From Candidatus Iainarchaeum sp. (GTDB taxonomy: Archaea; Iainarchaeota; Iainarchaeia; Iainarchaeales; Iainarchaeaceae), in assembly GCA_043812975.1 (NCBI GenBank), contig JBDRLP010000025.1, forward strand, positions 794-64,793: a stretch of DNA of 64,000 bases, given 5' to 3'. The notes under the pieces were generated by a model that saw only the letters and a program-made list of their open reading frames with translations, was not told the origin of the DNA and did not search any database. This document shows, piece by piece, positions 14,455-57,657 of this stretch (position 1 is its first letter; each line of letters opens with the position of its first letter). Made by a program: the position numbers and the translations under genes.

Positions 14455-14787
14455 GTGGCTTTTGATGCTAATTGGATTTTAACAAATACCCTTGCAATGT
14501 TTGATGTTCTAATCTTGGGAATAACATTAATGTTTGTAATAAAGATTGCAAAAGCCTATTCAAAAAAACATAAAATTGAAACAAATTACAATTACTTCTA
14601 CATTGGAATTGCACTTTACTTTATCTACAAATTATTCTGGGCAGTAATAATTTACTATCAACTTGCTGATTTGTTTTATGAGTATGGAATAATTGCAAAT
14701 TTAGCCTTGCTTGCAAGTGCAATGCTAATTTACAAAGGAACAAAAGAACTTGATGATTCAACTAGGAGGGCTTTCAGTGGAACCTAG
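14455..14787 (+). CDS. small membrane protein, hypothetical
   Basis: 110 aa, 3 TM. Confidence 0.35.
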   Translation: MAFDANWILTNTLAMFDVLILGITLMFVIKIAKAYSKKHKIETNYNYFYIGIALYFIYKLFWAVIIYYQLADLFYEYGIIANLALLASAMLIYKGTKELDDSTRRAFSGT

Positions 14788-15145
14788 CATAGCCATCATA
14801 GTGGCAGCAGCTTTACACTTTGCGGGAATGCTTTTACTGACACTCTCTCTTATTCATATAGCTGCAATGGCATACCATTTTTCAAAGAACAGGATAAAAT
14901 GCGTTTGCTTTCCCGGAACAAAGCTCCCAATGTATCCGCTGCTCATTGCTGCAGGAGGATTAACTTTTATGTATCTAACATTCACTTATATTCAGGTTTC
15001 ATTCATGCCAATAGAGGCACTATTCACTGAAGGGGTTCATTTAAGATTTATTTCTATGAGCATAACAGTAATAGGCGGCTTAATAAGCTTTTATGGAACT
15101 TACAAATTTTATCAGCTAACTTTAAAGAAAAAGGTGACAACATGA
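14750..15145 (+). CDS. small membrane protein, hypothetical
   Basis: 131 aa, 4 TM; start probably downstream of the overlap with the previous ORF. Confidence 0.35.
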   Translation: MMIQLGGLSVEPSIAIIVAAALHFAGMLLLTLSLIHIAAMAYHFSKNRIKCVCFPGTKLPMYPLLIAAGGLTFMYLTFTYIQVSFMPIEALFTEGVHLRFISMSITVIGGLISFYGTYKFYQLTLKKKVTT

Positions 15146-15372
15146 AACGAGAATCAATAATAGTTTTAACAGTATTAATTTTAATTGCTTTTTTGGTTTT
15201 TATGCAGGTTGAATCAACATTTGGTAATGTAACTCTTGAGAATAATGATGCAAATGAAGCTGACTTAAATGAAATAGTCCTGCCGAAATCATATTTTAAT
15301 CAAATTTTAATAATTACAGGAGCAATAATTTTTATTGTTTGGTATTATTATAGGACAATAAAAAAATATTAG
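15142..15372 (+). CDS. small secreted/membrane protein, hypothetical
   Basis: 76 aa; N- and C-terminal hydrophobic segments; ATGA overlap with the upstream ORF. Confidence 0.35.
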   Translation: MKRESIIVLTVLILIAFLVFMQVESTFGNVTLENNDANEADLNEIVLPKSYFNQILIITGAIIFIVWYYYRTIKKY

Positions 15373-15384
15373 GATTGGATAAAA

Positions 15385-15672
15385 ATGGAGAAAAAAAACA
15401 ATTTTGAAGAGATAAACATACTTGCATTTACCTCAGTGGTATTAGCTGGAGTGCTCTTGGGTTTTATTGTACACGAGATAACTCACCTGATTCTCATTAA
15501 AGAGGTTACAAGTGTAACAATTAGGTTCGGTGGGGCTAAAAGTGTTTTAAGTACTTGTTGTTTAAGCGAAGGAGAATCTGCATTGGAAGAACTAGCATAT
15601 TTCGTTCAATTTGCGGTTACCGTAGGATGGATATTAATCAATAATAAGGTTTTCCTTCAGAAAGAAAAATAA
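15385..15672 (+). CDS. small membrane protein with HExxH-like motif
   Basis: VHEITHLIL lies inside a TM segment; 95 aa; significance unclear. Confidence 0.3.
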   Translation: MEKKNNFEEINILAFTSVVLAGVLLGFIVHEITHLILIKEVTSVTIRFGGAKSVLSTCCLSEGESALEELAYFVQFAVTVGWILINNKVFLQKEK

Positions 15673-15683
15673 ATTAAATACAC

Positions 15684-15992
15684 TTATCTTTCAAGGAGAA
15701 GCTTTTCCATTTCAAATTCTTTCTCAGGACCTTCAGGTTTTAGCAGGGTCTGAACCTGCTTTTCAAACTTGTCCATTCTTTTATTTACTTCCCTGTGTTC
15801 ACGGGCTCTTGCGCTGTTGATTTTCTCAACAAGCTTGTACATTTCATTATCTTTCCTTTTAAGATCTTTCATTCTTTTCACAAGTTTTTTGTTAGAGAAC
15901 CTGTAAAAGTAAATTATTGTCCCTGTGAAAAAAAGCTGCACCCCTATAAGAATCAATGTTTCATTTGCAATTCCCGCAATTATATCAGCCAT
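15684..15992 (-). CDS. membrane-anchored coiled-coil protein, hypothetical
   Basis: 102 aa; one TM plus charged heptad-like region. Confidence 0.4.
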   Translation of the reverse strand: MADIIAGIANETLILIGVQLFFTGTIIYFYRFSNKKLVKRMKDLKRKDNEMYKLVEKINSARAREHREVNKRMDKFEKQVQTLLKPEGPEKEFEMEKLLLER

Positions 15993-15994
15993 AA

Positions 15995-17947
15995 TTAATC
16001 ATCCAGTCCAAGTAACCCTTCAATCCTATTTTCAAAGGAAACTTTCTTCTTCTTTTTTCTATCTTTTCTAATCTTTTTAATTTTTGAATATAAATATTTG
16101 GCTAAAAGCATTAAAAGGATTACCCCTGCAATCAACCACAAATAATCAACTATTCCTGATAAATCCAGCGAAGCTTCCTTTTCAAGTTGGTTTGCAAGTT
16201 CATCAATATCCCCGGCTTCCCTTACTGCTTCGGCAATATCATTATTAATACTAATATAATCAAAATTAGCTACTCTTTGTTTCATGGAACTTACGTTATC
16301 TTTTAAATTATCCAGTTTTTCCACTAAATACTCCGCAACATAGCCTTTAGCATCCAGATCTGAAAGCTTTTTCTCAAGTTTTTCAACCTTATTCTCCAGC
16401 TCTAAAAGGACATCAGTGTAATAAACATTAGGGCTTTGAATAGTGAAAGAGCAAAAAGCGTTCCTCTCCACATCCTTGAAAGCAAGTCTGGCTCTGGCAG
16501 TATAAGTTCCGGGAGAAAGACTGCTTGGAATAAAAACTGAAACCTTTTTTTCCAGCGAAGTACCAGGGTAAACAGCCAGAGGAATAGAAGAAAAACCAAT
16601 TTTCTGGGTTTTTTCATCCTCAATCCACCAACTGAACTCCACATCCTCATAATAATCACCCAAGTTGTACGCGACTATGTTAAAATCATAAGGAAGACCT
16701 GCTGTAGTTGATGCTTTGCTACAAATTGCCTCTAAATCATAACGCAGTTCGCCCCCAATATCATACCTGAATGTTTGAATATCATACTTAATCAACTTAT
16801 CTGGGGATGTTAGTGAAACAGTAACTATATGGGTGCCCGCAGTATCCGGAAACCACTTTTCCGAAAAAGTAACCCTTATAGTTTTTCCTGATGCAAGGAA
16901 AGGCACATCCTCTTGAGAGTAAAACTCAACCTCGCTTCCTCTCAAAATTTGAAGCTGGACCAAAAAATTTGTGTTAAGTGGTATTCCGTGCGAAACAAGC
17001 ATTGTGGCTGTTGCAGGAACACCAAGTTCAATGCTATCAAACTCAAACTGTCTAATAGCTGCTTTGTAGCCTTCGCTGCTTAAGCCTCCGCCACCGCCTC
17101 CGCCACCGCCTCCACCGCCGGTACCTCCTGTAGTTGTTCCGGAGCCGCAATCCGCCGGACAACTGCTGGTGGTTTCACTTCCCTGACAGGTTCCATCTCC
17201 GCACACCGCTCCCGGTCCAGCCACCGCAGAAACAGTGAACCTTCCCAATGTATTGGAGTTGCTTTCTGCATTGCATGTGAATGTTGAGGTCGCGGAATAT
17301 GTTCCTGTTGTGCTTGGAGCTAAAAAGGAATAAATGTATTCCCCGCCTCCCTGAGCACTCATTGTTTTATTTGAGTGAAGCGTACTTAAATCCGGATAAT
17401 AAACATCAATACTTGCGTTCAGGTCATTGAATGCATTGCTGTCATCATTCGTAACACTATTTCTTAGAGTTACAGTATCTCCAGGATTATAATCAGCATT
17501 GTTATTTATCCATGCAATTACAATGTTAAAATTCTTTACATAAATGTACTCGTTCAGATCATAAGTATCATTAACCTGATTTGTATCAGAAGCTGTTACT
17601 TGAAACTTGTAGGTGCCATTAGAATCAAAGGTATAATCAAAAATATAATTACCATCACCCTGATTGGTAAAAGTGATGTTATTGGTGTCACCGTCAGCTT
17701 CATTAACAACAGCAGTAACTGTTACATTATTATCCGCATCTCCGGTAGGGTGCTTGAATACCCTAAGATTAAGTTCCTGGGTTCCCGCAGCATCCATGCA
17801 GCGGGAAGCAGTGAAATCAGCGGTAATAGTAGTATCGCTTTGGGTTACCCAAGATAAGCTTCCATCATTCTGGGATGCTGCAAAAATAACACTGGATAAA
17901 ATGACTAAAAATATGATTACTCCAAACGCTTTCGGATATTTTAGCAT
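15995..17947 (-). CDS. secreted cell-surface protein with C-terminal TM anchor
   Basis: N-terminal signal peptide, T/N/S/D-rich beta-rich body, a (Gly)n linker GGTGGGGGGGGGGGGL, and a C-terminal coiled coil plus TM plus KKKKK tail. Confidence 0.6.
   Translation of the reverse strand: MLKYPKAFGVIIFLVILSSVIFAASQNDGSLSWVTQSDTTITADFTASRCMDAAGTQELNLRVFKHPTGDADNNVTVTAVVNEADGDTNNITFTNQGDGNYIFDYTFDSNGTYKFQVTASDTNQVNDTYDLNEYIYVKNFNIVIAWINNNADYNPGDTVTLRNSVTNDDSNAFNDLNASIDVYYPDLSTLHSNKTMSAQGGGEYIYSFLAPSTTGTYSATSTFTCNAESNSNTLGRFTVSAVAGPGAVCGDGTCQGSETTSSCPADCGSGTTTGGTGGGGGGGGGGGGLSSEGYKAAIRQFEFDSIELGVPATATMLVSHGIPLNTNFLVQLQILRGSEVEFYSQEDVPFLASGKTIRVTFSEKWFPDTAGTHIVTVSLTSPDKLIKYDIQTFRYDIGGELRYDLEAICSKASTTAGLPYDFNIVAYNLGDYYEDVEFSWWIEDEKTQKIGFSSIPLAVYPGTSLEKKVSVFIPSSLSPGTYTARARLAFKDVERNAFCSFTIQSPNVYYTDVLLELENKVEKLEKKLSDLDAKGYVAEYLVEKLDNLKDNVSSMKQRVANFDYISINNDIAEAVREAGDIDELANQLEKEASLDLSGIVDYLWLIAGVILLMLLAKYLYSKIKKIRKDRKKKKKVSFENRIEGLLGLDD
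17087..17125. repeat. (GGN)n simple repeat encoding poly-Gly
   Basis: ccgccaccgcctccgccaccgcctccaccgcc sits inside the 650-aa surface protein gene. Confidence 0.6.
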
Positions 17948-18166
17948 CGTAATAATTAGGAAAAAATAATTATTAATGTTGGGTTTGACTAAAATCAGGA
18001 AAAAAAATGAAAAAAAGCAAAGTTAAAATTAAATAGAAATTACTGAAAAAAATGCGAAAAATACTGAAAAAATATAAAAAAATTATATTAAAATTGAAAT
18101 TAAAATTAGTAAAAAAAATAGTAAATAGTAAAAAAAAATGCAAAAAAAGAAGTTAAATTAAAAAAA

Positions 18167-19180
18167 TTACTCGATTACATTAATAATAAAGTTAATTGGA
18201 AATCCGGATGGTGCAACTGTATTGGAAGCATCAAAGTAAAGATTCCTGTATTTAAAAGACCATTCTCTCTTCTTTTCTATTGGAGGAGCGACTATTGAAA
18301 AATTAACAGAATATTGTCCAGGTGGTTTTCCTTCTTTTAATTTTCCTTTTATTACCAATTGCCTTCCCCAATCAGCACTAAATCTTGGGAATGTTGGAGT
18401 TAAAACAAAAGTGTCAGGAGTTATTTCAACATCAAAATTCTCTAAAGTTTCTTTGGTTGGGATAATACTTGTACCCTGATAAGTCTGAACTCCATAACTA
18501 GTATAGAAAAAAACCACTGCAGTGAAGTCAGTTCTTCCTGATAAACTCAGAGTATCAAATTGTTCAGCAGGATAAGAACCATAACCACTCGTGCCCCAGT
18601 ATTTTGCATCAGGTTTAGCCCAATATCTTAAACCAATTTCCTTGAAATTAGGGTAAAATTCCGGCTGCAAAAAATATTCCTCAGAAAAACTACCTATATC
18701 ATAAGTCCTGCCATTAGCAAACAAAAAAGAAACTTCACTGAAATCCTCTGGAATTGGAGGCAACTGGTCAAAAATTTCATACTCAGAATTAAGGGTAAAA
18801 TACTCAGGAACATCCTCTATAGGAATTCCAAGATGGTCTGCTGCAGATTCAAAAAGATCATATTCATCCCTTTTTGGCTTAAAAGCCTCCTCAAAGTACT
18901 GCTGTCTTACTGCAAATTCTGTAGGAAGTACTCTAGAATCTTCTTTTACATCAGCCAAAGGTAATTCAGTATCAGAAACAACTGGTTCATCAGACAGTAC
19001 AATTAAAGGATTAGTAGGCTGGTTAAAAAACAATAAAGCAAACGCGCCAACAATAACAATAGCCACTATACTGATAATAATCGGGTTAAATGAAGCTTTT
19101 GGTTTTTTGGCTTTTATAGACGCGGTGTTCGGATTTTCTTTTTGATTAGAATTAATCTCATTTTCAGTTTCCAAATTCAC
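18167..19180 (-). CDS. membrane-anchored protein, paralog A of an uncharacterised YFLQPEFYP-motif family
   Basis: 337 aa; one N-terminal TM; shares EEYFLQPEFYPNF..GLRYW...GYGSYP with the 20072..20863 product. Confidence 0.5.
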   Translation of the reverse strand: MNLETENEINSNQKENPNTASIKAKKPKASFNPIIISIVAIVIVGAFALLFFNQPTNPLIVLSDEPVVSDTELPLADVKEDSRVLPTEFAVRQQYFEEAFKPKRDEYDLFESAADHLGIPIEDVPEYFTLNSEYEIFDQLPPIPEDFSEVSFLFANGRTYDIGSFSEEYFLQPEFYPNFKEIGLRYWAKPDAKYWGTSGYGSYPAEQFDTLSLSGRTDFTAVVFFYTSYGVQTYQGTSIIPTKETLENFDVEITPDTFVLTPTFPRFSADWGRQLVIKGKLKEGKPPGQYSVNFSIVAPPIEKKREWSFKYRNLYFDASNTVAPSGFPINFIINVIE

Positions 19181-19305
19181 ACCCCTATTTTATTCTATAA
19201 CAATTTTATAATGCTAAAGTATTTAAACAATTCTGTTTTGAGCAATAATTTTTGAGCAATAACACTACTTTAAACATTTTATTAACAACAATTATTTCAG
19301 ATTAA

Positions 19306-19992
19306 TTAACTTGCAACAGATGTTGTCTGGAAATTTGTTATAGTATGGCTTCCCTGAGAAACACCACCTGCCCCACCTTGAGTGAAATTAGGTCCTGCAT
19401 TAAAATCCCCTGATATACAAAGAGTATTAGTGTCAGTTACTAAAAGAGTATTAACAAGTCTTCCGCCTGTTGTTTCATTAAATTGATTAAAGTTTCTGCA
19501 AGTAGATGCAGTTACTGCAGTGGTTGTGTCTCCTTCATTTGAAGCAGTACAATCAAATTCCCAACCGCCTAAACCACTAGCTCCACAACCAGCGCCATCA
19601 CCCATCCAGACTTTTAGAACTAGATTTAAGTCAGCTCCATCAAACGCATCACCGACAATGTTAGCATCAATATCAACACTTACATTACCAGTGTTTGTAA
19701 TTGTAAGTGGAGCCAGACTGGCTGATTGACATACAGTCCCGCCAGAAGCTGCCTCATAAGGCAGGCACTGTGAACCGTTACCATCAACATCAGCATCAAT
19801 AGTACAGGTATCCTCAACAAAGAAAATATTGTTTTGAGAGCATGTACCACCATACGAAAGAGTGTGAGCAACAGCTGATGGAACAACCCAGGTCATTGTA
19901 GTGGTTGCTGTTGTAGCTGAATAAACAGTAATAGCTAATAAAATTGCTATTCCATAAACAAGTAAAACTTTCAATCCATTTCTCATTCTCAC
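19306..19992 (-). CDS. secreted Cys/Thr/Gly-rich protein
   Basis: 228 aa; cleavable-looking signal peptide; many Cys. Confidence 0.5.
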   Translation of the reverse strand: MRMRNGLKVLLVYGIAILLAITVYSATTATTTMTWVVPSAVAHTLSYGGTCSQNNIFFVEDTCTIDADVDGNGSQCLPYEAASGGTVCQSASLAPLTITNTGNVSVDIDANIVGDAFDGADLNLVLKVWMGDGAGCGASGLGGWEFDCTASNEGDTTTAVTASTCRNFNQFNETTGGRLVNTLLVTDTNTLCISGDFNAGPNFTQGGAGGVSQGSHTITNFQTTSVAS

Positions 19993-20071
19993 ACCTCGAA
20001 AAAAATTATAATTCTTTATTCTATAATGCCTTTTCCATTTAAATACTTAACGTTAAATTTGACTTATTTTA

Positions 20072-20863
20072 TTATTCAACCACCAAAATTAATTCAAAAA
20101 CAGGCCTGTCAATTGAAACAAAACCTGCATCAAAATATTTACCGTTAATTTCCTGTGCCCATTTTTCCTTGAATTCTTCGGGAGGAAAATCATTAATTAT
20201 TTTTAAATTATAAGTTCCCTGAGGGGCTTCTGGTTTTACAAAAACATTTAATTCAACATCTTTTGCCCAGTTCTTTTCAAATTTCGGAAAATTTGGCCCG
20301 ATTAAAAAAATAGGCTCTTTTATGCTCACATCAAAAAACTCTTTTGCTTCTTCATCCTCAAAAAAAGCATCCAATTTAAATCCCTGATAAGACCTAACCC
20401 CATAGCCGGAGTGAAAGAAGAACCTTGTTTTAACATTCTCTTCCCGATTAACAAAAACCGTTTTTTTTATCGGATAAGAACCATAACCATAAGCAGCATA
20501 ATGAGTTGTTGGCGGGTTTAACCAATAGTTCAAACCATTTTTCATAAAAGAAGGATAAAACTCGGGCTGGAGGAAATACTTTTCCGAGAAAAATAATTCA
20601 TCTCTGAAACCCCCTGAATGGTACAAAGAAACTATTTTGTTAAAATCATTTGGAGGCAAAGGAAGTTCTGAAAAAATTGCAGGCGAAAGTTTGTAAGAAA
20701 TTCTTTGCTCTGATAAAAGAACTTGTTTTTCTGAATCCTGCTCATTAAGAATTAATGAATCATTTTGAACATTATTCCCGCTTAACAATAAAAATGCAGC
20801 TAAAACCAGAACAATAATACCAATTGAGGCATAAATAATTTTTTTTTCCATAAAAATACCCAA
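20072..20863 (-). CDS. membrane-anchored protein, paralog B of the YFLQPEFYP-motif family
   Basis: 263 aa; N-terminal TM; EKYFLQPEFYPSF..GLNYW...GYGSYP. Confidence 0.5.
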   Translation of the reverse strand: MGIFMEKKIIYASIGIIVLVLAAFLLLSGNNVQNDSLILNEQDSEKQVLLSEQRISYKLSPAIFSELPLPPNDFNKIVSLYHSGGFRDELFFSEKYFLQPEFYPSFMKNGLNYWLNPPTTHYAAYGYGSYPIKKTVFVNREENVKTRFFFHSGYGVRSYQGFKLDAFFEDEEAKEFFDVSIKEPIFLIGPNFPKFEKNWAKDVELNVFVKPEAPQGTYNLKIINDFPPEEFKEKWAQEINGKYFDAGFVSIDRPVFELILVVE

Positions 20864-20866
20864 GAT

Positions 20867-23800
20867 TTATTTAGCAACACCAGTGCTAAGGACGTTTCTG
20901 TCAATACTCCCTACAGTTGCACTAACAAAATCAGCCCAGAGATAAATATTCAGGTCAGCAGTTCCTGTTGTGTAAAGAGCGGTTCCAGCATGAGGTGCTA
21001 AGGTAGTTATATCAACACACCCTGTTGCCGGAGCACCTCCGCAGGTTGCTTCCCATCCATTGTAAACATTAGAACCCTTTAATTCAAGAGTTCCAGGAAG
21101 AGCAGCATTCAAATCAAGAGTAATATTCATATCATTACTTGCAGTACTTTGGTTGTCATAAACAAAGAAAGCTAAACCAGTAGGAGAAGCAGCATCAACC
21201 TGTCCCTGCGCAGCAACCTGAGTTTGATCAGCCAAACCGCTTAAATCAGTGGTTACAAAATAACCTTTTTCACAATCAGCCCCTGCATCAATACTACCTT
21301 CCCCCTCAGTACAACCGCTATTGGGCAAAGCAAGAACAAAAGTAAAATCCTCGGAAAAAGTCTGGATTGTCATTGTTCTATCAGTACCGCTACTAGTGGT
21401 TATAGCAGTCTGAGTTCCATCTCCCCAAAAACGCAATTCAAAAATCCAGTCCTGCGGCGCATTCAAAACCCATGAAACAGCATAGTCCCCTCCGGAACTA
21501 AGAGTCTGATTTTGCGGCTGAGAACCAGAAACAATGTAAAGAGGCGAACCAACATCAGTATTCAAATCCATCCAAGTAGAACAACCAGCACCAACACAAT
21601 ACTGAACATTAGTATCAACCGAACCACAATCATAATTACTGCAAGAAGTTGTTCCGTTAACAAGGAAATTTACGTTCTGGTTTACAGTAACATTATTGTC
21701 CGCAGGAGGATTGCTTATTACAAATGAAAGATCCCCATCAGGCTCCAAAGTAATTGTTCTTTCAGTGCCGACAGTAGTGTTGGCATCTGCCATTGTTCCA
21801 GTTGTGTTGAATCTTAATTCATAAGTCTGTGCAACATTACCTTTCAAAACCCAAGAAACATTAAGGCTTTCACTTGCATTTGCATCAGTAAAAGTTTGTG
21901 GTTGAGAACCAGAAATAAGGTATAGAGGAGAACCAGAATCGGCATTCAAATCCATCCAAGTAGAACAACTAGCACCAATACAATACTGAACATTGGTGTC
22001 AACCGAACCACAGTCAGCATTCCTGCAAGTTGTAGAACCGTCAACCAAAAAGTTATTGCCTAAATACATAGTGTTCGCGTCAGCAGGAGGATTTGTGATT
22101 ACAGGTTCAAGTGTTCCTGCATCAACAACCCAGTCAGCAATTGTTATTGGTGTTGCATCACATTCATTCTCATCATCACAGCAGGTTGCCTCATCACCAG
22201 AATTATTAGTTCCAATATCCTCCCAAGAAGTTGTGTAAGAACAACTAGGAGTTGTATCAGTTCCGTTTGAACCAGCGCAAATTAAATCTGCACCTGATGT
22301 TGTTGAATCACAGGATGCAGCACCAGACCTGCAAACAACTAATCTGAAATTATCTCCTGCATCAGTACAATTTCCAGTGAAAGTAATAGCAGTGCCATGG
22401 TAAACCGAACCATCATTTGTAATTGTGCTTGTAATATCAGGAGCCAAATTTGGCTGGGTGTAGTAAATGTAAGGGTCAAAAGTCGCTCCTAATTCTCCAG
22501 TATCATAAAAATTAACTTCACATTCTTGTTTCCTGTCAGCTCTTGTGGTATCGTCTAAAAAGAACCTCAAAGTAAGGTAATCTCTTACTGCGGTAACATT
22601 GTTATTCCACGCAGTTGTAACAGTGGCATTAATGTCCCCAGCAATTGTATCACAGTCAAACCAATTTCCTACCACTGCCTCAAATATACTAGAATCAAAA
22701 TCAGTATCATCAATTGCAGCTCCAAGAGTCGTTATGCTGTCCAAATCAAATGTTCCAGGTAATTCTTTTGTTACTGTTGTCTGATAAGCCAAAGCAAACT
22801 CAGCAGTACTAACGCTGCCTATACCAGTAATGTCAAACTCGAGGACCGCCCTACTGTGATAGTCTGAGCCCGAGTTGTCATATCCTGCTTCAATATCTGC
22901 TGAATTAACCGAACTTGGAGAACCGTCTACAAGGCGTACTACTGTGCCGTCTACATCCGCTGTGCCTTCATTAATTGAAACCGAAGGATCCAATTCAATC
23001 AAAGAACCGTTTCCAAGAGTTTGGTAAATAAAAGTTTGGTTTCCATTAACATCAAGACTTAGTTCTGAATCGTAAAAAGAACCATTATTGGTTGGATCTG
23101 CAAAACTTATAGTGGCAACTGAATTATTTGAGAGGTCTGTTAAGAAAATTATTTTTTGGTTAGATTCATCATCCTCAGGAGGAACAAATAAACTTGCCTC
23201 AAAATCCCCAGAAGTTGCATGCTTCAGCCTTAAAATATTGTTTTGAGAAGAATAATTCCAGTCCTCAACCTCCAAACCCCATTTCAAACTGCTTCTTTTT
23301 AATTTATAATAAATGTGAACATCTGCACCACCATAATTGAAACTCCAAGAAAGCCTTCCCTTTTCAAAACCAACATCATTCAGGACGTTTTCTTTTTCTT
23401 TGTAATCAGCAGGAAAAGGATTTTCAGTGAAATTCACGAAATCAACAACCTCGTTTGCAGGGGTTATTTCCTCAATTGCTATAGGGGTTACTCCTAATAT
23501 TTGGCTGGTGTTGTTGCTGTAAATCCTCGTGCTTCCAAGGTTCTCCTTGAAATCCACAATCAAACACTCATTCTCGAGCCTGTGGGCATAATCATTATCA
23601 TTTATTTGCGAGTAAAAAGTTTCTCCGCATTCCGAATCAGTGTAAAGTCTTTTTCCTTCAGAACCAAAGTCAAATGTATCAGTAATTGGCTCGTCCTTCA
23701 ATGGTTTTTTGTTCTTCTTAATTTCCTTTGTTCTTCTAATATTCAACAAATCATCCGAATCCTCGATTGTATCATTATAATCATCAATTACTTCATCAGG

Positions 23801-25603
23801 AATTTTTTTCTTTGAAAAAGCAAAAGCAACAGGACTATAATTAAAAGTTGCTTCATTTGTGAAATTTAAATCAACCCAAGAGCCATTACATTCTTGACCT
23901 GCAAAATTCCAGCTGCTGCACTCAAAGAGGTGCTCAAAGTTTTTTGGTAAATTAAAAATTGCAGTCGAGCCTGAAAACTGCGGGTTAACTTTTAAGGCAA
24001 CTAGGGATAAGTAACTTGGATTGATTTTTGCAAGGGTGTTACTGTCAAGAATCTCACTAACCTCAATCAGGATTGTGTTTGAATCCAAAACAACATTACT
24101 CAAAGAAATTGATCCGAGAGTTTGGTCGGAGAAAAGTATTTCAGCATCATAAGTCCCCGACAAAACACTAACACTTTTGCCAGAGCCTGCCAAAGAAGCA
24201 TTGGAATCAAACAATGACAAATTTGATTCAGTATTTGACGCTACAATTGTTAGTAAGGGCAATTCTTGAGGCAGTTCTTCTGGTTCTTCAGCAGGAGGTT
24301 CTTCAATAATTTCTTCGGGAATTTTCTGCGCAAAACCCATTGCATTGCCGGAAGCAAATATTTTTGATGATATTACATTTCCATTTCGTGTGCCGCCAAA
24401 TAATTCCCACGAACCACTGCAGTTTTGTGATTCAAAATCCCAGTAATTGCACTCATAAACAAATCCAGCATCATAAGGAACAGTAACATCAAAATCAGTA
24501 GTGGAAAAACCAACATTGGGTTTTAGGGAAATGATTTTGACCCACTGCAAATTAGCATCAGGAACAGCAAAATCTAGAGAAATGCTCTCATCAACCTCAA
24601 TTAAAGTTACATCAGAATCAATTACGAGTTCATTAATAGTAATAGTGTTGAGTTGTGTTTCCAGAAAAGTCAGGTTTGCGTTGTAAGTTCCTTCATCAAG
24701 TTGCACTTGCTCGGTTGACGAGTCAACCAAATTACCATTAAGATCAAAAACTGATAAAGCAGCAGAAACATTTGAAGGAACAACAGTAAACAAAGAAGAA
24801 TCATCAATGATTACAAGCGATGGTCCAATTGTATTATTCGTATCTTCAGAAGGCTGTTCCTCGACTAACTCGTTTTCAATTGTAATGGAAATTAATTCAG
24901 AATAACAGGCAACCTCGGTGCAGGCATTTGCCTCTAAATCATAAACGCCGTTGTCAAATTCAGCAGTATTTATTTCAGCAGTTATAGTATTCTCTGAAAG
25001 AGTTCCATCAATTTGAGTTCCATTGATTTCAAACCACTGCGAAGTTATTTCCCCAAAGTTCTGCAGAGAAACAATAATCACATCAAGGCCGCTCAGAACC
25101 TGAAATTCTATAGGCGAAACAAAAATTATTTCAGGAATCAGTTCAATAAGGTCATCAATAATTCCTCCGCCAGAACCAGAATCTTCTGGTGGTTCAATCA
25201 CAACATTTGTATCAGGTGGTTCTTCTTCAGGCAGTGGTTCTGCAACAACATTTTGATCAGGAACTTCTTCAGGAACAGGTTCTGGCTCAGGTTCAGGAAG
25301 GGGTTCTTCCTCAGCAGAAGGTTCTTCAGGAGGAACTTCCACAGGAACAGGTTCCTCTTCAATAACAGGAGGCTCTTCCACTAGTGGCTCCTCTATTGGA
25401 GGCTCTTCCACTGGTGGTTCAAGATCTGGCTCGGAAACAGGTTCTGGTTCTGGAATAGGTTCAGGATCTGGGTCTATGAGAGGAGGTTCAGGAGCAGGAG
25501 GCTCTGGGTCTGGAGCTGGTTCTTCTGGAGGACTTGTGTCCTCTGAGAAAACAAATCCAAACAAAAGCAAAACCAAAACTAAAGCCGTCAGAAATCTTTT
25601 CAT
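20867..25603 (-). CDS. giant secreted surface protein / putative adhesin
   Basis: 1578 aa; signal peptide; about 120-aa Pro/Glu-rich PEPEP linker; internally duplicated ~125-aa modules (TNVQYC[IV]GA.CSTWMDLN...SGSQPQ); Cys-rich C-terminal half. Confidence 0.7.
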   Translation of the reverse strand: MKRFLTALVLVLLLFGFVFSEDTSPPEEPAPDPEPPAPEPPLIDPDPEPIPEPEPVSEPDLEPPVEEPPIEEPLVEEPPVIEEEPVPVEVPPEEPSAEEEPLPEPEPEPVPEEVPDQNVVAEPLPEEEPPDTNVVIEPPEDSGSGGGIIDDLIELIPEIIFVSPIEFQVLSGLDVIIVSLQNFGEITSQWFEINGTQIDGTLSENTITAEINTAEFDNGVYDLEANACTEVACYSELISITIENELVEEQPSEDTNNTIGPSLVIIDDSSLFTVVPSNVSAALSVFDLNGNLVDSSTEQVQLDEGTYNANLTFLETQLNTITINELVIDSDVTLIEVDESISLDFAVPDANLQWVKIISLKPNVGFSTTDFDVTVPYDAGFVYECNYWDFESQNCSGSWELFGGTRNGNVISSKIFASGNAMGFAQKIPEEIIEEPPAEEPEELPQELPLLTIVASNTESNLSLFDSNASLAGSGKSVSVLSGTYDAEILFSDQTLGSISLSNVVLDSNTILIEVSEILDSNTLAKINPSYLSLVALKVNPQFSGSTAIFNLPKNFEHLFECSSWNFAGQECNGSWVDLNFTNEATFNYSPVAFAFSKKKIPDEVIDDYNDTIEDSDDLLNIRRTKEIKKNKKPLKDEPITDTFDFGSEGKRLYTDSECGETFYSQINDNDYAHRLENECLIVDFKENLGSTRIYSNNTSQILGVTPIAIEEITPANEVVDFVNFTENPFPADYKEKENVLNDVGFEKGRLSWSFNYGGADVHIYYKLKRSSLKWGLEVEDWNYSSQNNILRLKHATSGDFEASLFVPPEDDESNQKIIFLTDLSNNSVATISFADPTNNGSFYDSELSLDVNGNQTFIYQTLGNGSLIELDPSVSINEGTADVDGTVVRLVDGSPSSVNSADIEAGYDNSGSDYHSRAVLEFDITGIGSVSTAEFALAYQTTVTKELPGTFDLDSITTLGAAIDDTDFDSSIFEAVVGNWFDCDTIAGDINATVTTAWNNNVTAVRDYLTLRFFLDDTTRADRKQECEVNFYDTGELGATFDPYIYYTQPNLAPDITSTITNDGSVYHGTAITFTGNCTDAGDNFRLVVCRSGAASCDSTTSGADLICAGSNGTDTTPSCSYTTSWEDIGTNNSGDEATCCDDENECDATPITIADWVVDAGTLEPVITNPPADANTMYLGNNFLVDGSTTCRNADCGSVDTNVQYCIGASCSTWMDLNADSGSPLYLISGSQPQTFTDANASESLNVSWVLKGNVAQTYELRFNTTGTMADANTTVGTERTITLEPDGDLSFVISNPPADNNVTVNQNVNFLVNGTTSCSNYDCGSVDTNVQYCVGAGCSTWMDLNTDVGSPLYIVSGSQPQNQTLSSGGDYAVSWVLNAPQDWIFELRFWGDGTQTAITTSSGTDRTMTIQTFSEDFTFVLALPNSGCTEGEGSIDAGADCEKGYFVTTDLSGLADQTQVAAQGQVDAASPTGLAFFVYDNQSTASNDMNITLDLNAALPGTLELKGSNVYNGWEATCGGAPATGCVDITTLAPHAGTALYTTGTADLNIYLWADFVSATVGSIDRNVLSTGVAK
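21500..22150. repeat. tandem intragenic DNA repeat (2 units of about 380 bp) in the giant surface protein gene
   Basis: Near-identical stretches ttcaaatccatccaagtagaacaac.agcaccaa.acaatactgaacatt begin near 21561 and 21945. Confidence 0.6.
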
Positions 25604-28449: not shown

Positions 28450-30024
28450 TTATTTTTTGCTTGTTTTTGATTTTGTACTTTTTTCTTTGGATTTTTCAGA
28501 TTCAGTTTTTTCCTTTTCCTGTTTCTGCTTTGAAGAAGTTAAATCCGGCTTCCAAATATGCTTTACTTTTTCTTCTTTAATCTTTGGAGCAAGATGTTCT
28601 GAAATAATCTCATTAATCATATTTCTTTGCCTGAACTGTCTTTTCAAATATCTCTCAAAAGATTTTGAAAGGTTTTTATAAGAAGCAACATCCCCATAAA
28701 GAAGACCTTCATTTAAGCGCCAGAATGCAGAGGTTCCTTTTTTGGCAAAAACAAAATAACCCCTTGAAATATCATAATCATCCATTGCATCCTCAAGAAG
28801 CTGGTGATTTACCAAATAAACCCCTGCTGTTTCGTTACTTGGATCCATTACTACAAGTTCCTCTCCCTCAACACCAACACATAAAACATAGTGGCCGGAC
28901 CTGCTTTCTTTTTCAGGGAAAATCACTGGTTTCTTGTACCATAAAATAATCATTGCTCCTTCCGCAATCCACGCCTTTATTTCCTGAGCAAGATCAAAAA
29001 TTTCATCAAACCTTATTAATTGACCTTTAACCTCTGAATTAGTGAACTTCTTCACAGCATTAATAAGGTCTTCCGGTTCCGTTCCTCCGGGAATCTTGGT
29101 TTTTGATTCCTTAGCCAGTTCTTCCTGAGTAATAGTATAACCAAAAAAATCAAGCATCATAACAGCTGAAGCAGGGCCACAGTAACTTGGCAATTGAGGC
29201 ATAAAGTTTTTCATCAACGCTTCAATCTTTGTGATGTTACTTCTAACCCTTTTCACAAGAAGTTCTTTTGTGATAATAACTTTGTTTGGAATAATATGAT
29301 TGTAACCGGAACTTGTTTCAATAATAACGCCGTGATTTGTAACGCTAATTACTTCACCTTCACTGTCCTGAAGTTTAACTCTTTGACCCGGCTTGAGAAT
29401 GTTTTTTTCAACATACCTTGCAAGCAGAGCATTTGAAATATAATCCTTGAAAGAATAAGCGATTAATGCTCCTGAGAAAAACATCAAAGTGAAAACAGTG
29501 CCTGCAATTATCGTATCAAAGAAAGGGACTGGCCGCGCGTAATAATTCAGGGTAATGCTTAGTAAAACGAGATAAAGGAAAAGTTTCAGGACAAAGAAAA
29601 CAGTGTTTATTATGTTTGATGAAACACCAAACTCGTGTAAGTAATCAAGTCTTCCTATTCGGGTGAAAAAAGTTTTCAGAATATCAACAATCAGATTTAT
29701 TACAATGTAACCAAGCATCAGAATAAGAATAATCACAAGTGCAGCAGGAATAATATCCCAGACCCTGACTAAAACATCCTTTGCAAACTCAACCTTCAAA
29801 ACATCAAGTGCAACTATTGTAAAGAAAACAAAAATCATCAGTTCAATAAGCCTTGTAAGTGATTTTACTGATGCAACCGAAACCAAGTTTAGTTTGTCAT
29901 TAAAAGCAAGTATTGCCAAAGCAATAATCTTTGCAGAAATTACTCCTGATATAAGAATTCCTAATGCTAATACTGTTTCATTAGCAACTGCATCCTGTAA
30001 TATATCCAAACCAAATGGTAACAT
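28450..30024 (-). CDS. MscS-family mechanosensitive channel fused to a C-terminal C39-like papain-fold peptidase domain and a Lys/Ser/Glu-rich tail
   Basis: Four or more TM segments, then the MscS beta-domain KPGQRVKL.SEGEVISVTNHGVIIETSSGYNHIIPNKVII. After that come QLPSYCGPASAVMMLDFFG (Gln/Cys of C39), SGHYVLCVGV (His) and MDPSNE (Asp). Confidence 0.7.
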   Translation of the reverse strand: MLPFGLDILQDAVANETVLALGILISGVISAKIIALAILAFNDKLNLVSVASVKSLTRLIELMIFVFFTIVALDVLKVEFAKDVLVRVWDIIPAALVIILILMLGYIVINLIVDILKTFFTRIGRLDYLHEFGVSSNIINTVFFVLKLFLYLVLLSITLNYYARPVPFFDTIIAGTVFTLMFFSGALIAYSFKDYISNALLARYVEKNILKPGQRVKLQDSEGEVISVTNHGVIIETSSGYNHIIPNKVIITKELLVKRVRSNITKIEALMKNFMPQLPSYCGPASAVMMLDFFGYTITQEELAKESKTKIPGGTEPEDLINAVKKFTNSEVKGQLIRFDEIFDLAQEIKAWIAEGAMIILWYKKPVIFPEKESRSGHYVLCVGVEGEELVVMDPSNETAGVYLVNHQLLEDAMDDYDISRGYFVFAKKGTSAFWRLNEGLLYGDVASYKNLSKSFERYLKRQFRQRNMINEIISEHLAPKIKEEKVKHIWKPDLTSSKQKQEKEKTESEKSKEKSTKSKTSKK

Positions 30025-53073: not shown

Positions 53074-56000
53074 ATGGAAGAAAACACCCCTAAACAAGAA
53101 ATTCGCCAAAAAGGTAAAGGTCTTACAATTGACCGGGTTTTCACAAAAAAAGGCGAAGATCCATTAGAACAAGTAGAATACAGCATACGGAGTTCTGTAA
53201 TAAAGAATCCTGATGGTAGCACAGTATTCGAAATGAAGGACCTTGAAATACCTAAGAAATGGACACAAATAGCAACTGATATTATAGCCCAAAAATACTT
53301 CAGAAAAGCCGGAGTTCCTCAGTTTGATGAAAAAAATGAACCAATCCTTGATGAGAACGGAAAACAAGTACTAGGGCCTGAAAAAAGTGCAAAACAAGTT
53401 GTGGCAAGATTAGTTGAAACCTGGAGATTTTGGGGGGAAAAATATGGTTACTTTGCATCATCAGAAGATGCACAGGCATTTGAAGATGAGATAAAATTCA
53501 TGCTCATCAATCAATATGCCGCACCAAACAGCCCGCAATGGTTCAACACTGGTTTGCACCACAACTACGGAATCAACGGACCTGCACAGGGGCATTATTT
53601 TGTAAATCCTGATACAAGCGAACTTGAAAAAGCAACTGATTCTTACTCACACCCACAACCCCATGCTTGTGGCCGATATGACACTCTTCTTTTTACAGAA
53701 AAAGGAATTAAGAAGTTGGGAGAAATTGTAGATAAAGAAATAATCGGATTAAAAGTATTTGACGGCGAGGAATTTGTGAAAATTTTAGCAGTAAAAGAAA
53801 ATGGAATAAAAAAAGTTTTCAGAGCAACACTTGCAAATGGAAATTACATTGATTTCACTAACGACCATTTAGTCTGGTCAGCAAAAACCAGAGAATCAGA
53901 ATTTGGGTGGAATGAACTAGGAAAAAGTTTAGGTTTTAAAGTAAAGCAATCTTTAAACACAGAAAATTTTGTCCTTGATTTGGCAGAAACCCAAAACACA
54001 AACTCAAATACAATACAAAAAGCTAAAATAAGTGAAACAGAAATGCAAAAAGCATCACTTGCAGGGTGGGTTGTAGGAGACGGTTATTTTGGACAATATG
54101 GAAAAACAACAATGTTTGGAGTAATAACCATAAATGAGGATGAATATAATCAAGTTACTGAGCTTTTTGAATCATTGTTTGGCGGTTTTACAATAACCAC
54201 TAAAAAAGAAATTAGTCCCGAGTACAGGATTGTAAAAAGGGACTTTAAAGAAGTAAAAGAATATGTAAAAGAGTATGAATTGAATCAAAAATCCCTAGGC
54301 GCAAAAATCCCACAAAAAATCATGGAAGCTGATCCAAAAATACAAAAAGAATTCCTAAAAGCGTTATTCCAAGCAGACGGTTGTGCAAGAATAAGAAACG
54401 AAGACGGCAGGAATTCAGGCGATGTTGTCTTATCAACTACGTCTGAAAACTTAGCACACCAAGTGCAAAACATGCTCATTAATTTAGGCATTTACTCCAG
54501 AGTAAGTTTATGTGATGATTCAAGGGAAGATAGACACATGCAGTATCATGTCATTATTGCGTATTATTCAGAAAGAATGAAATTCGAAAATGCTATTGGA
54601 TTTATTTCTGAAGATAAAAATCAAAAACTTGCCTATTTGAATGAAACAATCATTGGAAAATCAAAACCAGTGGTTTCATTGGAAACAATTTCAACAATAG
54701 AATATGTTGGAGAAGAAACAGTTTATGACATTCAAACGGAAAGTGGAAAATTTACTGCAAACGGAGTAGTAGTTCATAACTGTTTCATACAATCATTAAG
54801 AGATGACCTAGTAAACGAGGGCGGTATTTTTGATCTTATTACAAGAGAAGCAAGGCTTTTCAAATACGGTTCCGGAACAGGAACAAACTTCTCAACATTA
54901 AGGGGTTCCGGAGAACCGCTTTCAGGAGGAGGATACAGCTCAGGATTAATGTCATTCCTGAAAGTACTTGACAGAGCTGCCGGAGCAATTAAAAGCGGCG
55001 GTACAACAAGAAGAGCGGCAAAAATGGTGTGCCTCGATATTGACCACCCGGATATTGAACAATTCATTAACTGGAAAGTTCTGGAAGAACAAAAAGTTGC
55101 TGCAATGGTTGCAGGAAGCAAAGCCTGTAATTTTCACTTAAACGAAATAATGAGGATTGCTTTTGAAGGAAAATCAACTGATGTGAAAAAAAACAAAGAA
55201 CTTGGAAAAGAAATAAGAAAAGCAATGAAAGATAATGTATCGCCAAACTACATAATGCGGGTTTTGCAGTTAGCAGAGCAGGGAGAAAAAAGCATTGACT
55301 TTGCAATATTTGACACTAACTACAATTCAGAAGCTTACTTAACAGTTTCAGGACAGAACGCAAACAATTCCGTCAGAGTGAGTAACAAGTTTATTGAATC
55401 AGTTCTAAATGATGATTCTTGGGATTTAAAATTCAGAACCAATAATCAAATTGGGAAAACCCTCAAGGCAAGAGACCTTTGGGATAAAATTGCAAGAGCC
55501 GCTTGGCACTCAGCAGATCCTGGTTTGCAATACGATGATACAATTAATGAATGGCACACTTGCCCGAAAGATGGCAGGATTAATGCAAGTAATCCATGCA
55601 GCGAGTACATGTTTTTGGATGACACAGCATGCAATCTTGCAAGTATTAATCTGATTCACTTTTTGAATGAAGATAGTTCTTTTAATATTGAAAAATTCAG
55701 AAATTCCACAAGGCTCTGGACAATAGTACTTGAAATAAGTGTTTTGATGGCGCAGTTTCCAGCAAAAGAAATTGCACAAAAAAGTTATGATTACCGAACA
55801 TTAGGATTAGGTCATGCTAATCTTGGTGCTTTACTTATGGTTTCAGGAATCCCTTATGATTCTGATGAAGGGAGAGCAATTGCAGGCGCAATAACAGCAA
55901 TAATGTGCGGAGAAAGCTATGCAGCATCAGCTGAAATGGCAGAAGTTTTAGGATCGTTCAACAGGTTTCCAGAAAACCGAGAGGACATGCTTCGCGTGAT

Positions 56001-57657
56001 AAGAAACCACAGAAGAGCAGCTTACAATGAAAGTAATTCTTATGAAGGATTAACAATAAAACCAGTAGGAATTAACCCCGAAAAATGCTCTGAACAATTG
56101 GTTGCTGCAGCAAAGGATGCATGGGATCGCGCTTTAACTCTTGGAGAAAAAAACGGGTATAGAAATGCACAAGTAACAGTAATAGCTCCAACCGGAACAA
56201 TTGGTTTAGTAATGGATTGTGACACAACAGGAATTGAACCTGATTTTGCAATGATTAAGTTCAAGAAACTTGCAGGCGGAGGTTATTTCAAAATAGTTAA
56301 CCAAAGTGTTCCAAGAGCACTAAGAAAGCTTGGTCATACTGATAATGAAATTGATGATATTATAAAATATGCAAAAGGAACAGGAAGTTTAGAAGGAGCC
56401 CCTGCAATTAACCGAGAAAGTTTACTTGCAAAAGGATTTACTGAAGATAAAATTGCAGAAATAGAAAATCAATTGCCCAACGTGTTTGATCTTAAATTTG
56501 CTTTCAACAAATGGGCATTGGGAGAAGAGTTCTGCAAAAAACTAGGTTTTAGCGATGTTCAATTAAACAGTTCAGACTTTGACATGCTTAATGCACTTGG
56601 TTATAAAAAAGAAGAAATTGAACAAGCAAATGATTATGTGTGCGGAACAATGACAGTAGAAGGCGCACCTCATCTAAAAACAGAAAATTATGCCGTGTTT
56701 GACTGTGCTTCAAAATGCGGAAAGAAAGGAAAAAGATTTATCCTTCACTTAGGACACATAAAAATGATGGCCGCAGCTCAGCCATTTATTACAGGAGCCA
56801 TTAGTAAAACAATTAACATGCCAAATCACTCAACTGTCGAGGAAATTAAGGATGCGTATCTTCAATCCTGGCAATTGATGCTTAAAGCTAATGCACTTTA
56901 CAGAGATGGTTCAAAATTATCTCAACCACTAAGTACTATTGCAGATGAAGATGAAATAGCATGGCTTGGTAATGAAGATGAGCTTGATGAAACTATCGGA
57001 CCTGCACAAGTACAACAAAAAATCTCAATAAAACTTGAGAAGAATAAATTACCCACAAAAAGAAGCGGTTTTGTACAGGAAGCAACTATTGGAGGCCACA
57101 AAGTTTTCATAAAAACAGGAGAATATCCTGACGGATCACTTGGAGAAATTTTCATTGACATGTACAAAGAAGGAGCATCATACAGAGCGTTACTCAATTG
57201 TTTTGCAGTCGCGATTTCCAAATCACTGCAATACGGAGTTCCCTTGGAAGAATTTGTTGACTCATTCACATTCACAAGGTTTGAACCTTCAGGAGTAGTA
57301 ACAGGACATGAATCAATCAAATCAGCAACATCGATAATTGATTATATTTTCAGAGTAGTGGGATATGAGTATTTGGACAGAACAGATTTTGTTCATGTGA
57401 AGCCAATTAATGGGTCTGATGTAGGAGGAGAACAGAAGAAGATTGTTCCTCCAACACCTCAACAGGAAAAAGCAAAACCGAAAACAATAGAAGAAATAGA
57501 CAAACAAGAAATCAGCAGAGAAGAAACCAAAATTATTATTGCTAAAGAAAAAGGTTACACTGGAGATCAGTGCGGCGGGTGTGGTTCTATGAGAGTAAGG
57601 CGTAATGGAGCCTGTACTGTTTGTGATGATTGCGGACAGACTTCTGGATGTAGTTAA
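53074..57657 (+). CDS. nrdJ: adenosylcobalamin-dependent (class II) ribonucleotide reductase, long form, interrupted by one intein
   Basis: [23 protein letters not shown] active-site block, [21 protein letters not shown], and the C-terminal Cys cluster CGGCGS...CTVCDDCG. The extein is about 1156 aa once the intein is removed. Confidence 0.9.
53668..54780 (+). mobile_element. intein (371 aa) with LAGLIDADG homing-endonuclease domain, inserted at the NrdJ catalytic-loop cysteine
   Basis: The N-extein ends HPQPHA and the intein begins CGRYDTLLF. The LAGLIDADG-like blocks are [11 protein letters not shown] and [14 protein letters not shown]. The intein ends VVVHN followed by the +1 Cys of CFIQS (the ACF catalytic Cys). 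Coordinates are codon-exact from my count. Confidence 0.85.

Follow-up and report, generated by a model that had tools for sequence, protein, structure and literature searches.

Which of the proteins encoded side by side at a locus of putative surface proteins in a DPANN archaeon belong together, and do they constitute one system? The question is raised by a stretch of 64,000 nt from the groundwater archaeon Candidatus Iainarchaeum sp. (GenBank assembly GCA_043812975.1, contig JBDRLP010000025.1, positions 794 to 64,793; here termed the window, within which all positions are given unless a locus number is stated), the source metagenome-assembled genome (MAG) being Candidatus Diapherotrites (Iainarchaeota). 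A first-pass annotation, made from the sequence alone, had described five consecutive minus-strand open reading frames (ORFs), and an ORF scan recovered the same five at exactly the same coordinates. In the direction of transcription these encode the giant protein E1578, the short paralog D263, the small secreted Cys-rich protein C228, the long paralog B337 and the anchored protein A650 (abbreviated E, D, C, B and A; Table 1). A sixth, co-oriented gene encoding S102 (S) was assigned to the cluster on the basis of orthology at other loci. As judged from profile comparisons, the cluster contains two copies of a two-gene module, in which a gene for a secreted protein carrying a common domain (the C/T domain) is followed by one for a membrane protein of the YFLQPEFYP family, i.e. 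E with D, and C with B. GenBank entries ABIH20_02420, ABIH20_02425 and ABIH20_02430 of the Candidatus Diapherotrites MAG represent proteins identical to B, C and D, for which the GenBank models measure 335, 226 and 259 aa, owing to different start codons.

The topologies deduced from hydropathy distinguish the members of the cluster. E and C possess a signal peptide without a membrane anchor, B and D a single N-terminal transmembrane (TM) helix (type II orientation), and A650 a signal peptide, a poly-Gly stretch and one C-terminal TM helix, while S102 consists of an N-terminal TM helix followed by a charged helix that is probably cytoplasmic. N-glycosylation sequons exceed the background of 0.7 per 100 aa in the two anchorless proteins (2.1 in E and 1.8 in C) and fall short of it in B and D. 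E1578 carries 33 sequons and 30 Cys residues, is acidic (pI 4.05) and is rich in Thr/Ser; C228 contains eight Cys residues.

C228 comprises a signal peptide and the C/T domain only, with six invariant Cys residues. Comparison of the C-family profile with that of the terminal domain of the giant (T domain) using hhalign yielded a probability of 92.3% (E 5e-7), or 92.4% when signal peptides were removed, and distant C-like proteins were shown to bridge the two, matching T at 99.7% (E 2e-26) and C at 98% (E 1.6e-13). Control comparisons of the R-module and En-module profiles (both parts of the giant, see below) with C/T, and of the B/D profiles with any other module, all remained below 5%. The relationship surfaced only with a 34-member T-domain alignment and via the distant C-like proteins, a single-sequence comparison of C with the C-terminus of the giant being negative (4.5% probability). 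These profile matches indicate homology between the last ~155 aa of the giant and C, in which the domain stands alone. Conserved motifs of the C/T domain include TMTW, LKVW, GWE and F(S/W)GDF. The T-domain alignment begins at the second strand of C, so that T is devoid of the N-terminal strand of C; in giants, nothing but a short Ala/Pro/Gly linker separates T from the unrelated modules ahead of it. Neither the C family (24 members) nor E1578 matched a Pfam family, C228 and E1578 returning none at E<=1, and both C228 and E1578 were likewise without an NCBIfam match.

Given that C is homologous to T, the cluster holds a duplicated two-gene module, and the pairing was seen to extend to other genomes: among phylogenetically related loci, and with paralogs typed as B or D by profile score alone, D-type paralogs adjoin giants in 33 of 34 cases, and B-type paralogs adjoin C in 27 of 32. 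Furthermore, some genomes encode extra pairs of a giant with D, or of an enlarged C with B. The first-pass annotation had suggested that the paralogs could be dedicated assembly or anchoring factors for the two large proteins. Synteny supports the notion of dedicated partners; the assignment of one paralog to each large protein was wrong, since D goes with the giant and B with the small C, A650 having its own C-terminal anchor. As a separate observation, large insertions at two fixed loop positions interrupt the C domain of proteins from some genomes, the products reaching 420-870 aa; in these, the domain is still C-terminal, and next to them a B-type paralog is encoded (Table 1); the T domain is split likewise in some giants (loci L003, L006 and L049).

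The membrane partners B and D are paralogous, as had been noted from their distinctive common block, with 36% identity over 187 aa (BLASTP, E 2e-37) and complete invariance of the YFLQPEFYP...GYGSYP block between them. In a 63-member alignment of the paralog family, Q99, P100, E101, G126, P131 and W199 are invariant, and the family is very densely set with invariant aromatic and polar positions (R54, Y57, Y96, Q99, E101, Y103, Q160 and W199); the same alignment contains no invariant Cys, Ser or His nucleophile. B337 is made up of an N-terminal cytoplasmic tail, one TM helix and an extra ~75-aa insert ahead of the conserved domain. The AlphaFold2 (AF2) model of D263, computed like that of C as a monomer, was predicted with a pLDDT (predicted local distance difference test) score of 90.6 and consists of a TM helix, a linker, a helical subdomain bearing the motif and an immunoglobulin (Ig)-like β-sandwich. 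Among PDB structures, Foldseek ranked MSP/PapD-like, cohesin, GH123 N-terminal and S-layer Ig domains closest to it, with E values of about 1e-5 to 1e-6, the cohesin matches being generic (TM-score 0.2-0.46).

An exhaustive HMMER search of 1.84 billion representatives retrieved 429 paralog-family clusters, 402 of which fell below 1e-10, with lengths of 154-364 aa among the best 150 matches. Members are confined to DPANN and, where named, are annotated as 'hypothetical proteins' of that group. The family could not be assigned to a known one, in agreement with the first-pass annotation: Pfam gave no specific match for B, D or the 63-member family alignment (marginal hits were to PapD_N in 1/63, E 0.14, and Pilin_N in 1/63, E 0.038), NCBIfam gave none for B and D, and PDB sequence searches with the paralogs and the C/T domain returned no match. 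The possibility raised at the outset that the paralogs are a known, unrelated enzyme found no counterpart either, as no enzyme-family likeness was detected by sequence or fold (Pfam, NCBIfam, PDB and fold search). Two protein families, the paralogs and the C/T domain, are thus absent from curated libraries.

A650 was shown to consist, in order, of a signal peptide, a strand (SLSWVTQS), Ig-like domains, a CGDGTC Cys knot with the poly-Gly linker, two further Ig-like domains (NEW3/CARDB-like), a poorly conserved heptad-like segment, a TM helix at about aa 603-623 and a basic cytoplasmic tail ending in LLGLDD. Pfam and NCBIfam returned generic Ig-like matches only (MG2, NEW3, Filamin and PKD), and matches to scFv (single-chain variable fragment) entries in the PDB were dismissed as an artefact of the poly-Gly linker. 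The end of the tail (aa 645-650, 15998-16015) reads (L/I)LGL(E/D) in most Iainarchaeota members of the A family, the remainder of the tail being poorly conserved.

The N-terminal strand of A resembles that of C. In C, the mature N-terminus (TTTMTWVV) is the most conserved segment of the protein; it exhibits an alternating hydrophobic pattern and, in the AF2 model, is a coil that lies outside the folded sandwich core. The N-termini of C and A co-vary in 23 genomes, cognate pairs reaching a local-alignment score of 31.5 versus 22.6 for non-cognate pairs (permutation P about 5e-5), with the same outcome when permutation was restricted within lineage groups. That the A N-terminal domain represents a full C/T domain was considered and rejected: an earlier score of 92% against C/T was driven by the signal peptide, without which just an 18-residue strand aligns (4%). 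The strand and T-domain pattern therefore defines three classes of protein, namely acceptor only (the giant), strand plus acceptor (C), and strand only with a membrane anchor (A).

The giant itself is laid out as a signal peptide, a Pro/Glu-rich spacer (about aa 21-135), a conserved and internally duplicated N-module (En, aa ~136-597), a variable middle, two R modules and the terminal T domain. Both the Pro/Glu linker and the internal duplications reported in the first-pass annotation were recovered, the duplications relating aa 273-435 to aa 452-608 (~34% identity) and aa 1163-1299 to aa 1290-1427 (~53% identity). The suspicion that the ORF is an artefact of collapsed repeats is excluded, because the DNA copies of the younger duplication (R modules) are just 83% identical over 160 nt and giants with the same end modules occur on >30 independently assembled contigs. 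Orthologous giants range from about 920 to >2600 aa, with N-terminal and C-terminal modules in common and a variable middle, and some of them carry Laminin_G_3 lectin-like inserts. A role of the giant as a host-attachment element is plausible in view of such inserts; an S-layer-like or fibre role may apply instead.

The cluster recurs on >30 Iainarchaeota contigs. Contigs with homologues carry the six genes, all of them orthologous by BLAST, and rearrangements and inversions leave two blocks intact: giant followed by short paralog, and C, long paralog, A and S. The nearest database relatives are only 58-76% identical. A scan of species-representative genomes, for which a 15-member paralog alignment served as the query, identified 46 loci, almost all in DPANN and mostly in Iainarchaeota, the other lineages being Micrarchaeota, Aenigmarchaeota, Burarchaeum and Norongarragalinales; subsequent profile annotation of all loci gave the same pattern. 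The flanks are composed of housekeeping genes (two RimK-like ligases, FGase, a PQ-loop protein, a C39-peptidase/MscS fusion, CysRS and a cytidylyltransferase) that are syntenic with another MAG, by which a mobile or horizontally acquired island was rejected. The G+C content of the cluster is slightly raised (0.37-0.40 vs 0.30-0.36), matching its amino-acid composition. The expectation of a hypervariable island was not upheld, as the six genes are syntenic across the phylum and beyond, and only the middle of the giant varies.

In distant lineages, comprising Micrarchaeota, Aenigmarchaeota and their relatives, the cluster is diverged: its genes run paralog, C-like, paralog, A-like, a ParA/MinD ATPase gene replaces that of S at the end, and giants are located nearby. 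The presence of two paralogs in this order argues that the paralog duplication is older than these phyla. In the lineages with the ParA/MinD ATPase (Micrarchaeota, Aenigmarchaeota and Burarchaeum), the tails of A-like proteins carry a conserved ERLxYxxxLK-type helix, which, together with the ATPase, hints at cytoplasmic positioning of a surface structure. The full DPANN cluster was also encountered in two non-DPANN bins, one labelled as a Chloroflexi bacterium MAG (L018) and one as a Thaumarchaeota MAG (L023), and these labels are probably binning errors in public assemblies.

The junctions between genes differ in kind. E and D are separated by 3 nt, and A and S by 2 nt. The first-pass annotation had described the spacers as extremely A-rich, which applies to the B-A spacer (17948-18166), the other two being merely AT-rich. 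The B-A spacer contains many T7-T9 runs and ~2.7 copies of a degenerate 64-nt unit; it probably combines a transcription terminator after B, of the strong archaeal type, with the promoter region of A. The minus-strand spacers upstream of C (19993-20071) and B (19181-19305) each display a TTTAAAT(A) box, followed by GCATTATA(G/A)AAT, and end in GAGGT or GGGGT. This TATA-like box sits 39-45 nt ahead of the start codons of C and B. The two spacers look like paralogous promoter and ribosome-binding regions, and C and B may therefore each own a promoter. A sigma-70/terminator scan returned nothing above shuffles, the bacterial sigma-70 model being uninformative for an archaeon.

From the gene content, orthology, synteny, C/T homology, pairing, co-variation, topologies, D fold class and absence from curated families described above, we infer the physical interactions, stoichiometry and biological role that follow. 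We regard it as moderately probable that the locus is the Iainarchaeota form of an ancient, conserved DPANN envelope cluster encoding the parts of a surface complex: the paralogs would tether or chaperone the anchorless C/T proteins, and the giant would form the variable outward part. B and D would each bind the C/T domain of the neighbouring gene product on the outside of the membrane, acting as a tether or a membrane-bound chaperone; archaea are not known to have a peptidoglycan that could hold anchorless surface proteins. The giant, with conserved ends around a variable, sequon-rich middle (lectin-like in some genomes), would project outward as an adhesive or exposed surface, and A650 would serve as a self-anchored Ig-domain stalk. 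A and C may dock onto C/T domains by strand complementation and so join the parts into one assembly, a proposal prompted by the likeness of the N-terminal strand of A to that of C and by the lack of this strand in T.

Several observations weigh against this reading. The structures matched by D belong to the generic class of Ig-like sandwiches, and the C228 model is of moderate quality, with no PDB structure matching at E<=0.001 (Foldseek) and a pLDDT of only 77.6. The pairing counts overstate independence, the B/D profiles having been derived from loci that are syntenic and, moreover, phylogenetically related. In distant lineages, the assignment of genes beside the paralogs depended in part on protein size, topology and profile comparison instead of strong pairwise similarity. 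Finally, instead of a protein-binding site, the many aromatic and Q/E positions that are invariant in the paralogs could reflect one for glycan binding or catalysis.

Among characterized systems, the closest analogue is the WxL cluster of Firmicutes, of which the present cluster is not a member. WxL/Csc clusters encode experimentally supported surface complexes (PMC10599100, PMC9772566), comprising a small WxL protein, a large WxL protein, a DUF916-DUF3324 'WxLIP' with a C-terminal TM helix and often a small LPxTG protein, and strand insertion beside the N-terminal strand of the common domain has been proposed (PMC9772566, PMC10599100). In both cases, a small domain-only protein and a large adhesin-like protein ending in the same domain are encoded in one cluster, the common domain is shorter in the large than in the small protein, and an Ig-like protein (A650 here) is anchored by a C-terminal TM helix. 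Conversely, Pfam WxL was not matched in C228, E1578 or 24 C-family members, in which paired WxL motifs are absent; the archaeal host is without peptidoglycan; the YFLQPEFYP type II paralog pair has no counterpart in WxL clusters; and in place of an LPxTG protein there is the small TM protein S or, in other lineages, the ParA/MinD ATPase. When 27 A-like proteins were compared with Pfam, three matched WxLIP_HBD, all under the curated cut-off (best E 2.4e-5, 24.8 vs 28.9 bits), and none matched DUF916. Cohesin-dockerin systems are similar in that cell-bound β-sandwich receptors bind the C-terminal module of secreted proteins in cognate pairs, but B, D, C and E have no Pfam Cohesin or Dockerin match, and C/T is a ~155-200-aa Cys-rich β domain rather than a Ca-binding dockerin. 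A 2019 survey described an enigmatic DPANN-specific secreted family, cls.004306 (NEQ255), beside arCOG02487 Ig-domain 'S-layer-like' proteins (Makarova, Wolf and Koonin, PMC6393860). This pair may equal the C-like/A-like pair; the survey's note on cls.004306 is silent on the paralog family, the C/T homology with giants and the duplicated module.

A more ambitious reading of the same parts, possible if rather unlikely, is that of a donor-strand fibre, in which the giant would be the tip adhesin (T accepting a strand), C the polymerising shaft and A the strand-donating membrane base, with B and D as PapD-like chaperones, tethered to the membrane and covering the grooves of C and T until assembly. 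The structure would then correspond to chaperone-usher pili or Sulfolobus threads, in an archaeal form that does without an usher. The domain logic read from the sequences (E as acceptor only, C as donor and acceptor, A as anchored donor only) is in line with such a fibre, as are the alternating hydrophobic N-terminal strand of C modelled as a coil, the MSP/PapD-like domains among the best fold matches of D, and the apparent TATA-like boxes of C and B. Chaperone-usher, thread and TasA systems likewise combine a large tip-like protein whose last domain resembles the small subunit, a conserved N-terminal strand on that subunit (here C) and Ig-like partners (here B and D). In the Sulfolobus thread cluster, moreover, the subunit is accompanied by a cap homologous to it and by two membrane proteins whose role is unexplained (PMC9715654). 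However, a 1:1:1 complex accounts for the same facts. In Foldseek, TasA-like, CanA and Saf subunits matched C without significance (E 0.7-3.6; TLP-1a 0.73, CanA 3.6), with no TasA-superfamily structure at E<=0.001, and no Pfam match to Peptidase_M73/TasA (24 C-family members), PapD or usher families was obtained. Unlike in chaperone-usher systems, the partners are membrane-anchored with one per client, the loci hold no usher-like gene and no two-domain PapD chaperone, and D is a single Ig-like domain with a helical subdomain and a TM helix. Archaeal type IV pili offer no closer parallel: neither an assembly ATPase nor a platform gene is present in the window cluster, and the ATPase beside distant loci is of the ParA/MinD type, not a secretion ATPase.

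A two-component S-layer similar to SlaA/SlaB of Sulfolobales, with the giant as lattice canopy, A650 (β-sandwich domains, a helical stalk and a C-terminal TM helix) as SlaB-like stalk and the other genes as accessory anchors, is clearly unlikely. The outline is shared, in that an anchorless giant glycoprotein is co-encoded with a stalk of β-sandwich domains and a C-terminal TM helix; the architecture of A fits the description of SlaB, E is acidic as well as Thr/Ser- and sequon-rich, the cluster is conserved and chromosomal, and Ig-domain proteins of A's kind have been labelled 'predicted S-layer proteins' (Makarova et al., PMC5898192). However, no homology to SlaA/SlaB was detected, extra families (C, B and D) are present, and in some genomes the giants number two or three, differ from one another and come with a paralog apiece. 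The length range of the giants and their lectin-like inserts are more typical of adhesins, and 30 Cys residues would be unusual for an S-layer protein. Furthermore, paralog-bearing Micrarchaeota use a canonical PF05123-type S-layer protein (bioRxiv 10.1101/2021.04.28.441871), and the five cluster proteins matched neither this domain nor other S-layer families in Pfam or NCBIfam. Still less probable, and in our view very improbable, is that the paralogs are extracytoplasmic enzymes or glycan-binding proteins that modify or bind glycans on their neighbours, or process these proteins, possibly with an HExxH protein encoded next to the cluster, rather than passive tethers. The dense invariant aromatic and polar residues, the sequon-rich clients and the conservation of that HExxH membrane protein beside the cluster in Iainarchaeota would fit such an activity, but the family resembles no enzyme in sequence or fold, has no invariant nucleophile of the Cys, Ser or His type and folds as an Ig-like sandwich with a small helical bundle, and the use of one paralog per client favours recognition over catalysis.

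Table 1. Positions of the genes, domains, motifs and related features (window coordinates unless a locus is given)
Feature	Position	Strand	Remarks
E1578, giant	20867-25603	-	1578 aa; ORF scan
D263, short paralog	20072-20863	-	263 aa; ORF scan; 3 nt after E
C228, small secreted Cys-rich protein	19306-19992	-	228 aa; ORF scan
B337, long paralog	18167-19180	-	337 aa; ORF scan
A650, anchored protein	15995-17947	-	650 aa; ORF scan
S102, sixth cluster gene	15684-15992	-	102 aa; 2 nt after A; orthologous at other loci
Two tandem R modules of E1578 (aa 1163-1291, 1290-1418)	21350-22117	-	~53% identical protein
T domain of E1578 (aa 1419-1578)	20870-21349	-	always the extreme C-terminus of orthologous giants
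Motif in D263 (aa 96-104)	20552-20578	-	on helical subdomain
Motif in B337 (aa 169-177)	18650-18676	-	from sequence
Mature N-terminal strand of C, TTTMTWVVPS (aa 30-39)	19876-19905	-	conserved across C family
B-A spacer	17948-18166	-	219 nt; 61% T on coding strand (A-rich on + strand)
95-aa membrane protein	15385-15672	+	conserved HExxH and CC motifs; convergent on S
Small multi-TM protein, 131 aa	14750-15145	+	adjoins 95-aa protein
Small multi-TM protein, 110 aa	14455-14787	+	adjoins 95-aa protein
Enlarged C protein, L019	5331-7226		
Enlarged C protein, L023	3-2621		
Enlarged C protein, L034	6334-7611		
Enlarged C protein, L038	13596-16007		
Enlarged C protein, L045	1257-2513		
ParA/MinD-family P-loop ATPase gene, L035	10572-11198		
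ParA/MinD-family P-loop ATPase gene, L037	13024-13791		
ParA/MinD-family P-loop ATPase gene, L039	10455-11234		
ParA/MinD-family P-loop ATPase gene, L040	10442-11233		
ParA/MinD-family P-loop ATPase gene, L042	8511-9296		
ParA/MinD-family P-loop ATPase gene, L046	10665-11447		
ParA/MinD-family P-loop ATPase gene, L050	10841-11635		
ParA/MinD-family P-loop ATPase gene, L051	9550-11154		

Beyond the six genes, the 95-aa HExxH protein was found to be syntenic with S in eight independent loci, with the two multi-TM neighbours present in six of these eight. This membrane-protein trio (14455-15672) had no Pfam match above threshold; judging by its motif, the 95-aa protein may be a tiny metalloprotease or a metal-binding accessory of the cluster. 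Elsewhere in the window, a 524-aa protein combining a mechanosensitive-channel β domain with a C39-like peptidase (28450-30024, minus strand) is encoded at the same relative position in locus L001. A second giant ORF (53074-57657, plus strand) was considered as a second adhesin and rejected, as it encodes a class II (B12-dependent) ribonucleotide reductase of 1527 aa bearing an intein with a LAGLIDADG homing endonuclease domain.

Most DPANN lineages are uncultured, and 'hypothetical' is the annotation of most of their surface proteins, although these bear on host attachment and envelope composition. From one block of such genes, the present analysis defines a system that spans a phylum, names its parts and proposes testable pairings: D would go with the T domain, B with C, and the N-terminal strand of either C or A with C/T domains. 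Two families new to curated libraries are added, and the cluster points to an archaeal counterpart of the WxL adhesion clusters of Gram-positive bacteria, or possibly of donor-strand pili. As a doubtful conjecture, Iainarchaeota, Micrarchaeota and Aenigmarchaeota may share an unrecognised donor-strand surface fibre with client-specific tethered chaperones, positioned in some lineages by ParA/MinD via the tail of its base; if true, this fibre could be the host-attachment organelle of these symbionts. If the giant is the host-binding element, its variable middle would mark host range in metagenomes.

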